NCBI GenBank assembly: GCA_035387745.1 | Contig: DAOOON010000027.1 | Span: 1-8,544, forward strand | Length of the DNA: 8,544 nt | Direction of reading: 5' to 3' | Source of the DNA: an archaeon | Lineage (GTDB): Archaea > Iainarchaeota > Iainarchaeia > Iainarchaeales > CSSED10-239 | Shown here: piece by piece, positions 5-1,615 of the stretch | How positions within the stretch are numbered: position 1 is the first letter of the stretch | Layout: each line of letters opens with the position of its first letter | Translations under genes and position numbers: made by a program | Notes under the pieces: generated by a model | Told to the model about the DNA's origin: nothing | What the model saw: the letters and a program-made list of their open reading frames with translations, nothing else | Database searches by the model: none

Positions 5-1615
5 TTAATTTGTAATTTTCCATAAAGATGAATCTTCAGAAGATGTTCCATCCACAAGTGTGCCTTTAAAAGTAATCATGTAATCGCCACTACTTTTACA
101 ATTAAAACTATATGTCTTATTTGTTATTGGAATAGAATTGTTGCCTAAATCAAATGTACTAGAATAAACTCCTGTTAAAATATACTTACAGTTGTTTGTG
201 GGTTCATAATTACCTGTAAACGCATTTTTTAATTTAATTGAAGCAACTAAATTAAAAGCTCTTCCGTCTTCGCCGTCTACCGAAAGCACAGTATTAAAAT
301 TACGATTTCTTCTAATACTTCCACTCTCTGGAGTAAGAATTAATTCTATTGCTTTTTTACAGTTACTTGTATCGATTTGGCAATAATTTGAATTACAACT
401 TAAATCTCCGATTAACCAAGAAGAATTGACGTCTGTACATGTTTTTCCAGAAAATTCTCCCAGATCTTCGCCATCACATTGCTCGCTGCCTTCAATTATG
501 TGATTACCACACATTTGATTAGAATATACTCTTGAACAACCATTATTTGAAGAAAATCTCTCTTCTTCTAATTGAGTCATAGTACTATAATAACGCCAAC
601 CAGAAGTTAAATTTGTATTTAAAATAATTTCATTAGTATTTGAATTTTCAACAGACAGAATTGCACCTGTTGCTGATTGGTTTGTGTCGTATATTAATTG
701 AACTATAGAATACTCTCCAGCTAATAATTCTCTAGAATCAGAAGCCCAACCATTTATCCAAACGTACTTTGGAATAATTACAATCTCGTTTGAGATATCA
801 TGATCTGGCCACAACCAAACCTTTGTTTCATCATCACCAAGAGCAGAAATTATAACATTTGTAGTTTCTGATAAAACAAAAGAATTATACAAAAAATAAT
901 AATCCTGTATATAATGGCAATCGGAACTTGGGCAAAGCCAAAGTGCACTTGGATCTGGCCATGTCGCCATGTTTCCTCTGGTAAACCAGTTAGGGTCTGT
1001 GGTGTTATAAGGCCGCCAACCGCCGCTCTCAAATTTAAGACACTCACTTGCTGGCCAGAATTCACATTGTGTTGTATCAAACAAACAACTTTCATTACAA
1101 GATAGAGCTCCATAATCAAAATTTAAAGAACTACAACTTTCGCTATTTAAATCTTCGCCATCACATTGCTCTGCACCCTCTATAATACCATTACCACAAA
1201 CTGGCAAAGCCACACAGCCAGAAGTATTAATTGTGCAATCGAGATTACAAGATAAATTCCCAGAAGAATCGGGAATTAAAGAAGAACAAGTTTGTACTCC
1301 GAAATTCAAAGAATCACACTCTTCTCCAGAATCAATATTTCCATTACCACAATTTTCTGTACAACAATCACTAGAACAGTTTTCACAAGTCTCTCCTGAT
1401 TCACAAATAAAATTACCACAGATAATTCTGGTTGGAGAAGTTACCTCTGAATAATTAATGGGTGATTGGGCCATACCTAAAACACTATCGGACTTCGACA
1501 TAGAAAATTGAGCAGAATGTTGATTTAGATAAAACATACCAAAAAGAACCATACCAATAATTATTACACTAATTACAACCAAAACTTCTAATGCAACTTG
1601 GCCTTTTTTACTCAT
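5..1615 (-). CDS. Class III (prepilin-type) signal peptide protein with cysteine-rich repeats and a central beta-sandwich (PA14-like) region; putative pilin-like surface adhesin (~536 aa)
   Basis: The ORF track gives 5..1657. I place the start at the internal ATG 1613..1615 (residue 15, MSKKGQVALEVLVVISVIIIGMVLFG) because a GGAGGTG Shine-Dalgarno (1623..1629, minus strand) lies 7 nt upstream of it and would fall inside the longer ORF. The N-terminus is a short basic leader, then KG|Q, then a hydrophobic helix with Glu at +5, which is the archaeal class III / type IV prepilin pattern. The mature part holds a CGNFICESGETCENCSSDC motif and three 6-Cys repeats (CGNGxIExGExCD...C...LSCNxxC...C). 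The stop TAA is at 5..7. Confidence 0.75.
   Translation of the reverse strand: MSKKGQVALEVLVVISVIIIGMVLFGMFYLNQHSAQFSMSKSDSVLGMAQSPINYSEVTSPTRIICGNFICESGETCENCSSDCCTENCGNGNIDSGEECDSLNFGVQTCSSLIPDSSGNLSCNLDCTINTSGCVALPVCGNGIIEGAEQCDGEDLNSESCSSLNFDYGALSCNESCLFDTTQCEFWPASECLKFESGGWRPYNTTDPNWFTRGNMATWPDPSALWLCPSSDCHYIQDYYFLYNSFVLSETTNVIISALGDDETKVWLWPDHDISNEIVIIPKYVWINGWASDSRELLAGEYSIVQLIYDTNQSATGAILSVENSNTNEIILNTNLTSGWRYYSTMTQLEEERFSSNNGCSRVYSNQMCGNHIIEGSEQCDGEDLGEFSGKTCTDVNSSWLIGDLSCNSNYCQIDTSNCKKAIELILTPESGSIRRNRNFNTVLSVDGEDGRAFNLVASIKLKNAFTGNYEPTNNCKYILTGVYSSTFDLGNNSIPITNKTYSFNCKSSGDYMITFKGTLVDGTSSEDSSLWKITN
359..511 (-). repeat. Third copy of the six-cysteine repeat (CGNHIIEGSEQCDGEDL...C...LSCNSNYC...C), separated from copies 1-2 by the ~160-aa central domain
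   Basis: Residues 383-433 carry the repeat. It shares an identical 21-nt block (464..484 = 1151..1171, encoding EQCDGED) with copy 2. Confidence 0.7.
1064..1351 (-). repeat. Two tandem copies of a ~45-aa six-cysteine repeat (CGNGNIDSGEECD...C...LSCNLDC...C and CGNGIIEGAEQCD...C...LSCNESC...C)
   Basis: In the translation, residues 103-148 and 154-198 of the ORF-track protein align with conserved Cys positions. The CGNG..E.GE.CD start resembles the Myxococcus cysteine-rich repeat family (myxo_disulf_rpt). Confidence 0.7.
1526..1615 (-). other. Class III signal peptide / pilin-like N-terminal helix (MSKKG|QVALEVLVVISVIIIGMVLFGMFYL)
   Basis: It has a basic leader, Gly at -1, Gln at +1 and Glu at +5, followed by about 20 hydrophobic residues. 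This matches the Class_IIIsignal family pattern (KGQ.s.E + hydrophobic), the type cleaved by PibD/EppA-type prepilin peptidases. Confidence 0.65.

Follow-up and report, generated by a model that had tools for sequence, protein, structure and literature searches.

A class III signal peptide ahead of a disulfide-rich, multi-domain head: a candidate modular, pilin-like surface adhesin of a Diapherotrites archaeon

Several described systems come close to the protein that is our subject here, the product of a gene at one end of an 8,544-nucleotide stretch of archaeal DNA (contig DAOOON010000027.1, positions 1 to 8,544, hereafter the window). In Methanococcus maripaludis, the DUF361 pilins processed by the peptidase EppA (the major pilin MMP1685, EpdA-C and MMP0600/0601/0709) open with a short basic leader ending in glycine, a glutamine at position +1, a glutamate at +5 and a hydrophobic helix, and the published signature of EppA substrates says much the same: a signal of 5-13 amino acids (aa) that ends in glycine, with the +1 glutamine and the +5 glutamate conserved (PMC3875500). 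Bacterial modular pilins—PilB with its vWA module and PilC with its lectin module in Streptococcus sanguinis, CofB in enterotoxigenic Escherichia coli (ETEC), TcpB in Vibrio cholerae—carry adhesion or lectin modules on a pilin N-terminus, are predicted tip or minor subunits and have diverse heads across paralogues; the survey of these proteins left out archaea (PMC8179133). In Sulfolobus, the sugar-binding proteins of the bindosome, large, non-pilin and several to a cell, bear prepilin-type signals, and their placement on the surface depends on a type IV filament-like system (bioRxiv 10.64898/2026.04.22.720090; PMC4858521). As for the lineage at issue, type IV filament systems occur in DPANN genomes, and their pilins are divergent (PMC6393860; bioRxiv 10.64898/2026.04.22.720090), an Epd-like "system 1" is found in methanogens and DPANN (bioRxiv 10.64898/2026.04.22.720090), and large class III-signal proteins have been noted in archaeal pilus loci (PMC4858521).

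In this paper, we ask one question: what is a protein of 536 residues that begins like a pilin and ends like an adhesin? We put at roughly 50% the probability that this is the gene for a modular, pilin-like adhesin on the surface of a DPANN archaeon (Ca. Diapherotrites). The first-pass annotation of the window had suggested a minor or tip pilin acting as an adhesin, or else a pilin-anchored surface protein, and this is the natural reading because bacterial modular pilins and large archaeal class III-signal proteins exist; the class III signal and the adhesin-like head speak for it, and membership of a pilus is unproven. The likeness to bacterial modular pilins, in other words, is one of plan (a pilin N-terminus, adhesion modules behind it, heads that differ among paralogues), and it has its limits. 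In the bacterial proteins there is a globular pilin module as well as the IPR012902 motif, whereas here there is a helix only and then a disordered linker, and the signal, unlike theirs, is of the archaeal Q+1 type. Flp and Epd pilins are helix-only, as here, but here a head is tethered on.

The gene (Table 1) lies on the minus strand, with its ATG start at 1615-1613, and two public contigs carry the same 536-aa, ATG-start product on record. The longest open reading frame (ORF), 5..1657, opens with a TTG, which the first-pass annotation had misread as an "ATG 1657" and offered as a rival start. We hold this extension to be non-coding because a TAA closes the frame seven codons before the Lys-Lys in three of the six orthologous genomes, and translation from there can be ruled out. 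Orthologues from those six genomes, on contigs of up to 813 kb, have identities of about 56-97%; where the source gives a name, it is "Candidatus Diapherotrites archaeon" or simply "archaeon," and one more distant relative comes from a "Candidatus ainarchaeum sp." The host is a DPANN archaeon of the Diapherotrites/Iainarchaeota group. Across seven orthologous sequences, 28 of the 30 cysteines of the protein are invariant, as are K3, K4, G5, Q6 and E10, which is far beyond chance.

Those last five residues are the heart of the matter. The protein opens MSKKG/QVALEVLVV (MSKKGQVALEVLVVISVIIIGMVLFGMFYL; the slash marks the predicted cut), that is, with a leader of 5 residues, basic and Gly-terminated, followed by Gln +1, Glu +5 and a hydrophobic helix of ~25 residues. 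A window scan places the hydrophobicity maximum at residues 6-13, and the full-length AlphaFold2 (AF2) model, built from 8 sequences (mean predicted local distance difference test, pLDDT, 62), has a helix at residues 3-32; the signal and helix that the first reading had seen at KKG/QVALE are borne out by both the invariant residues and the model. Q6 and E10 are invariant in paralogues as well as orthologues, and KKGQ...E is kept in orthologues as low as 57% in identity and also in P0014, a distant homologue at 34%. We call the signal EppA/DUF361 class III because its Gly end, Q +1 and E +5 match the signature of the Methanococcus substrates (PMC3875500). As far as the sequences can tell us, the N-terminus is a genuine and conserved class III (prepilin-type) signal of that flavour, and we infer cleavage after Gly5 by a prepilin peptidase. 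The likeness to the Methanococcus pilins is not complete: they are 67-299 aa long, against 536 aa here with six extra modules, and PF04021 (Class_IIIsignal), although it aligns end to end (model positions 1-27 on residues 3-29), scores 13.3 bits here against a gathering cut-off of 23.7. For one paralogue the score is 20.5 bits, also under the cut-off, and we therefore describe the protein as a carrier of the motif and no member of the curated family.

Scientists might reasonably ask whether a few residues, however well conserved, amount to a processing site. A profile of the first 89 positions, run against 1.84 billion representative proteins, gave 1028 matches at an expectation value (E) of <=1e-3, of which the best 150 were inspected; 50 of these align from their own N-terminus, and in 50 out of 50 a basic leader, 5-17 aa long, precedes [KR][GA]Q-x-x-x-E (the remaining matches among the 150 are proteins with 5-22 tandem copies of a Cys knot to which we return below). 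In a 5.8-billion set, an N-terminal profile found a single new protein. Paralogues begin, for example, MKLRTNRTA/QVAIEVLV, MNKKG/QLVMEVMV or MMVKKKKA/QVALEILV: across the family the Gly/Ala-Gln junction is constant while the distance to it from the start varies, and this is the pattern expected of a processing site. It also tells against an uncleaved signal-anchor, in which the protein would be a type II membrane protein, its KKGQ...E would reflect topology (the positive-inside rule) and helix packing, and no peptidase or filament system would be involved. A signal-anchor would account well enough for one N-terminal hydrophobic helix behind Lys-Lys, for peptidase and assembly genes that are not nearby and for a PF04021 score below threshold; it leaves unexplained an invariant junction at a variable 5-17 aa from the start, as well as an invariant charged Glu, four residues into a membrane helix, in 50 clusters. 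Other surface proteins of the same loci, moreover, bear ordinary Sec-type signals, and we think the signal-anchor distinctly improbable.

The same residues bear on the thought that the protein is structural and of an ordinary kind, Sec-secreted or associated with the S-layer, its N-terminus removed by signal peptidase I. The conserved G5, Q6 and E10 sit at the N-terminal edge of the hydrophobic stretch and not at its C-terminal end, and the stretch runs on for ~25 residues with no Ala-x-Ala-type site behind it. That the head is built of common extracellular modules (Cys repeats, an immunoglobulin (Ig)-like domain) and that the neighbouring 900-aa gene encodes a Sec-signal surface protein are what such an explanation has to offer, and we give it very little credence.

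Behind the helix, a linker over which the AF2 model falls below pLDDT 50 (residues 30-66) leads to a Cys knot of the form CGNxxCExGExxxxCxxDC; no Pfam family matched it in the proteins that were scanned. This knot is a widespread small disulfide module, because tandem copies of it, alone and 5-22 at a time, occur in ~100 other protein clusters (P0106-P0248); in some of these tandem proteins, the fusion partner is a trypsin, Calx-beta or PD40 domain. Then come the first two of three 6-Cys repeats, an insert and the third repeat, the three that the first-pass annotation had counted. Mutual identity among the units is 42-51%; against a Myxococcota unit it is 47-50%, and against the units of Myxococcota proteins annotated as DUF4215 it spans 47-52%. 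The curated profiles fall short, DUF4215 (PF13948) at 19 bits against a cut-off of 27 and myxo_disulf_rpt (TIGR02232) at 16.9 against 20.8, and one orthologue, P0002, has a faint precomputed match; the repeated CGNG..E.GE.CD unit, with conserved Cys spacing, is present as in annotated DUF4215 members, and AF2 confidence over the repeats is moderate. The protein and the Myxococcota DUF4215/TIGR02232 proteins have in common a 6-Cys unit of ~46 aa, CGNG.IE.GE.CDG..L.G..C...G...G.L.C...C.F.TS.C, but the latter bear signals of the Sec or lipoprotein type and repeat the unit many more times, whereas the present protein has three units, interrupted by an inserted domain and placed behind a class III signal. 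Not one of the 40 Cys-repeat matches that we read (from P0012-P0081) has a class III N-terminus, all being of the bacterial Sec or lipoprotein type. Myxococcus-type repeats in an archaeon had at first seemed an oddity; they are not unusual in this lineage, because the same repeats recur, as does the N-terminal cassette, in many Diapherotrites proteins.

The insert (residues 185-368) is real but larger than first supposed, 184 aa and not ~160, and it contains C192, C228, C233 and C360. Pfam and PDB sequence searches with it gave no match, and a search of the 5.8-billion set with its profile gave a single new protein, which leaves it without detectable relatives outside the family. In the full-length model the domain is poor; modelled alone by AF2, it has a beta-sandwich core (pLDDT 54, predicted template modelling (TM) score 0.55), for which the best PDB matches in Foldseek are almost all PA14-fold lectins and adhesins (E 3e-3 to 1e-2, TM 0.35-0.40), among them a Pleurotus lectin, Flo1, Flo5, Lg-Flo1, Epa1, Epa9, KpFlo2, Cea1A and a rhamnose-binding carbohydrate-binding module (CBM). 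Chitinase matches (E 0.17-0.26) we took as chance. The PA14-fold lectins of fungal adhesins (Flo1/Flo5, Epa1/Epa9, Cea1) and PA14-like CBMs are, then, the best structural matches of a weak model and have no sequence match to it; the PA14 profile had no Pfam match to the domain in any of the 7 orthologues. The stretches GDDETKVWLW and AGEYSIVQLIYD...GAILSV we take to be PA14-motif-like, in agreement with the Foldseek outcome, and two strands, the conserved Gly-Asp-Asp...Trp one and G.Y.I..L.Y, presumably resemble PA14 motifs too. Because the underlying model is weak, we treat a PA14-like lectin as a lead.

The C-terminal domain is modelled with far better confidence (Table 1), and its Cys pair, C476/C506, is the pair that was numbered C490/C520 when counted from the TTG. 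With the full-length model, Foldseek found only generic Ig, fibronectin type III (FN3), cohesin and CBM folds, and the sequence matches of this domain are weak and inconsistent. A PilJ_Pilin match at 18.3 bits was taken as chance because it is confined to 1 of 8 orthologues. The models and their fold matches support the picture of a post-helix part that is an extracellular, disulfide-rich, multi-domain head with adhesin-like features.

What, then, weighs against a pilin-like adhesin? The head of 500 aa would be hard to pack within the body of a filament. No globular alpha-beta pilin module packs on the helix, which in the AF2 model ends at residue 32 and gives way to the disordered linker; because that module is lacking, the protein is no canonical type IV pilin. 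The PF04021 gathering cut-off is missed, and the PA14 lead comes from a low-confidence model (pLDDT 54) with Foldseek E values of only ~1e-2 to 1e-3. Finally, the machinery is not at hand. We read 10 kb on each side of the gene in 14 distinct neighbourhoods (6 orthologous genomes and 8 further loci) among 28 loci, and in none of the 14 was there a T2SSE, T2SSF or A24 peptidase Pfam match or an ORF with a Walker A motif of type IV filament (TFF) kind; within that distance, neither the gene nor its paralogues have a prepilin peptidase, a secretion ATPase or a TadC/FlaJ platform as a neighbour. This last point we regard as weak evidence, because in archaea it is normal for pilin genes to be unlinked from the machinery, as they are in M. 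maripaludis and Haloferax (PMC3875500); the DUF361 pilin genes of M. maripaludis are, like those of this family, scattered away from the assembly genes.

That no pilus genes lie nearby would also suit a protein that is processed as a class III substrate but never polymerised, held in the membrane by its helix or built into a short, bindosome-like pseudopilus, with varied heads displayed just outside the envelope. The evidence at the N-terminus is the same for such a tether as for a filament, a flexible linker of 33 residues and a Cys-rich stalk would serve it well, and the many large-headed paralogues at a locus (as many as five within 12 kb, at L006) recall the bindosome of Sulfolobus, with its several binding proteins that bear class III signals. 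The bindosome parallel, however, goes only so far. Bindosome heads are substrate-binding proteins encoded beside ATP-binding cassette (ABC) transporters, whereas the heads here are Cys-rich, lectin-like or beta-helix modules, and neither a substrate-binding-protein domain nor an ABC transporter is present in the protein or the neighbourhoods read; bindosome signals, of the PibD type, lack the Q+1 and E+5 seen here. The invariant Glu +5 within the helix is best known for its part in filament packing, and short paralogues able to build a fibre do exist. We consider membrane-tethered display unlikely, if well worth keeping in mind.

Those paralogues deserve a closer look, since the cassette that opens the protein is by no means confined to it. 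The N-terminal cassette heads proteins of 84-1578 aa in dozens of clusters, and in every orthologous genome the genes downstream of the target open with the same one. Past the helix, paralogues continue with a linker, the CGNxxCExGExxxxCxxDC knot and then a head of GLUG or CHB_HEX type; across the family, the alternative heads on the cassette are GLUG beta-helix repeats, CHB_HEX_C_1/Fn3_assoc, RCC1 propellers and Fib_succ_major (the Fibrobacter major domain). Tandem arrays are common, and the longest has five cassette genes (L006). Some complete paralogues, lying within arrays or next to them, are short (Table 1), and those of 172 and 128 aa lie directly upstream of members of 864 and 1165 aa, respectively (L018, L021); going by length and cassette, the short paralogues are candidates for the major fibre subunit. 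Beside the distant homologue P0014, there is also a diversity-generating retroelement (L010 1-2560), consisting of a bAvd gene and a reverse transcriptase, with a template/variable repeat pair of 125 nucleotides (nt) (1147-1271 vs 14-138) that is 89% identical. We considered whether it targets this family; it does not, because its variable repeat sits in a different, truncated upstream gene. All of this suggests an archaeal family of helix-only, "modular pilin"-like adhesins that has gone unannotated, a variant of the known modular-pilin/class III principle.

If the protein is the pilin-like adhesin that we favour, one might imagine its working life as follows. A prepilin peptidase in the membrane would cut the leader off after Gly5, and the freed helix, with its buried Glu5, would act as the assembly and anchor module of an Epd/Tad-like type IV filament system. 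The protein would then be shown as a low-abundance or tip subunit of a fibre made mostly of short paralogues. The Cys-rich repeats could form a rigid stalk, and the ligand, bound by the Ig-like domain and by a middle domain that may be PA14-like, would probably be a glycan carried by a host cell or a surface. Six extracellular modules, at any rate, are grafted behind the pilin-type N-terminus.

One can go a step further, and we do so with a good deal of doubt. Perhaps the Diapherotrites build a "multi-tool" type IV fibre or pseudopilus, in which large heads that can stand in for one another—the PA14-like lectin, the GLUG beta-helix, the RCC1 propeller, the CHB_HEX modules—are joined to a helix-only carrier cassette (class III signal, Glu5 helix, flexible linker, Cys knot), the genes lying in tandem arrays beside short paralogues that would supply the major subunit. 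The heads would be on flexible linkers and therefore could sit along the body of the fibre as well as at its tip. We think such a fibre improbable, and if it is true, it would be an architecture undescribed for type IV filaments.

Table 1. Features of the adhesin candidate, its surroundings in the window and its paralogues at other loci (L numbers denote loci, each with its own coordinates)
Feature	Position	Strand	Remarks
Coding sequence	5..1615	-	536 codons plus TAA stop at 5-7; start backed by orthologue comparison
Shine-Dalgarno-like GGAGGTG	1623..1629	-	7 nt upstream of ATG; read from sequence
Leader peptide MSKKG, residues 1-5	1601..1615	-	Predicted prepilin-peptidase cut after G5
Hydrophobic alpha-1 helix, residues 6-32	1520..1600	-	Q6 = +1, E10 = +5
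Linker, residues 33-65	1421..1519	-	Low conservation; predicted disorder
Cys knot CGNFICESGETCENCSSDCC, residues 66-85	1361..1420	-	C66, C71, C80, C84 invariant; common to paralogues
6-Cys repeat 1, residues 89-134	1214..1351	-	DUF4215-like; all six Cys invariant
6-Cys repeat 2, residues 140-184	1064..1198	-	DUF4215/TIGR02232, sub-threshold
Beta-rich middle domain, residues 185-368	512..1063	-	Lineage-specific, Trp-rich; GDDETKVWLWP and VQLIYDT...TGAILSV motifs; candidate PA14-like lectin module
6-Cys repeat 3, residues 369-419	359..511	-	Cys layout and unit alignment
C-terminal Ig-like beta-sandwich, residues 420-536 (117 residues)	8..358	-	C476 and C506 pair; pLDDT about 80-94
Invariant upstream non-coding block AAAAGAAG[T/C]ATATAAAAAAGTATTGCCTAAATATATTTGTAGTT, ~44 nt	1636..1679	-	Two TATA-like boxes and palindrome AAATATATTT
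Upstream 900-aa surface protein	1712-4414	-	Sec-type signal; very acidic Asp/Glu-rich segments
128-aa coiled-coil protein	4607-4993	+	No family match; syntenic with surface-protein array in all orthologous genomes
Lys-rich proteins, 146 and 262 aa	5002-5442, 5444-6232	-	No family match; syntenic in all orthologous genomes
Exosortase/archaeosortase-family gene, 184 aa	6243-6797	-	Syntenic; TIGR04178 37.8 bits
Adjoining downstream paralogues	L001 8596-10242 (just past window position 1); L006 11793-16298, 21527 onward; L003 11778-14408		Cassette plus GLUG or CHB_HEX_C_1 heads
Short complete paralogues with cassette	L015 4506-4847 (113 aa); L018 9283-9801 (172 aa); L021 216-602 (128 aa)

The gene keeps settled company. 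The window (GC content ~30%) also encodes ribosomal protein S8e, an Xpf/Hef nuclease and a protein of the exosortase/archaeosortase family, and the gene order is conserved: Xpf, S8e, the archaeosortase-like gene, two Lys-rich unknowns, the 128-aa coiled-coil gene on the opposite strand, a Sec-signal surface protein of about 885-900 aa, the target gene and then one to five further surface-protein genes. The 900-aa protein ends in a C-terminal tail of PLSAFFSLKNAGS, a transmembrane helix and RKR, and a beta-helix protein at L006 (5600-7096) ends in a similar one. Proteins of the 900-aa type and the archaeosortase-like gene product may be a sortase/substrate pair with an undescribed sorting signal.

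Just ahead of the target gene lies a non-coding block that has changed less than the proteins encoded behind it. Its 25-nt core (1636-1660) is identical in 10 loci of 6 genomes, where the encoded proteins are only 57-67% identical, and the TATA-proximal part (1661-1679) differs at two or three positions, reading, for instance, GAAGT, GAAGC or GAAATC before ATATAAAAAAG. The block occurs once in the window, and the alternative TTG at 1657 falls inside it. It had no Rfam match, and it showed no covariation or compensatory changes of the kind that an RNA structure would leave. The target gene probably has its promoter or an operator here, under strong constraint.

Archaea of the DPANN group have tiny genomes, and most of those in culture spend their lives attached to a host cell; the surface proteins of the group are for the most part listed as "hypothetical." How they recognise and attach to their hosts is, to our knowledge, little understood. 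Here a prepilin-type cassette is reused on many different adhesin-like heads, in conserved arrays near ribosomal and archaeosortase-like genes. If these proteins are pilus-displayed adhesins, then the "modular pilin" principle reaches from bacteria to archaea, and the Diapherotrites have concrete candidates for host-recognition molecules; a "multi-tool" fibre, were it to exist, could let archaea with small genomes recognise the glycans of host cells. If they are merely anchored in the membrane, the lineage would still owe its main variable surface repertoire to the cassette proteins.

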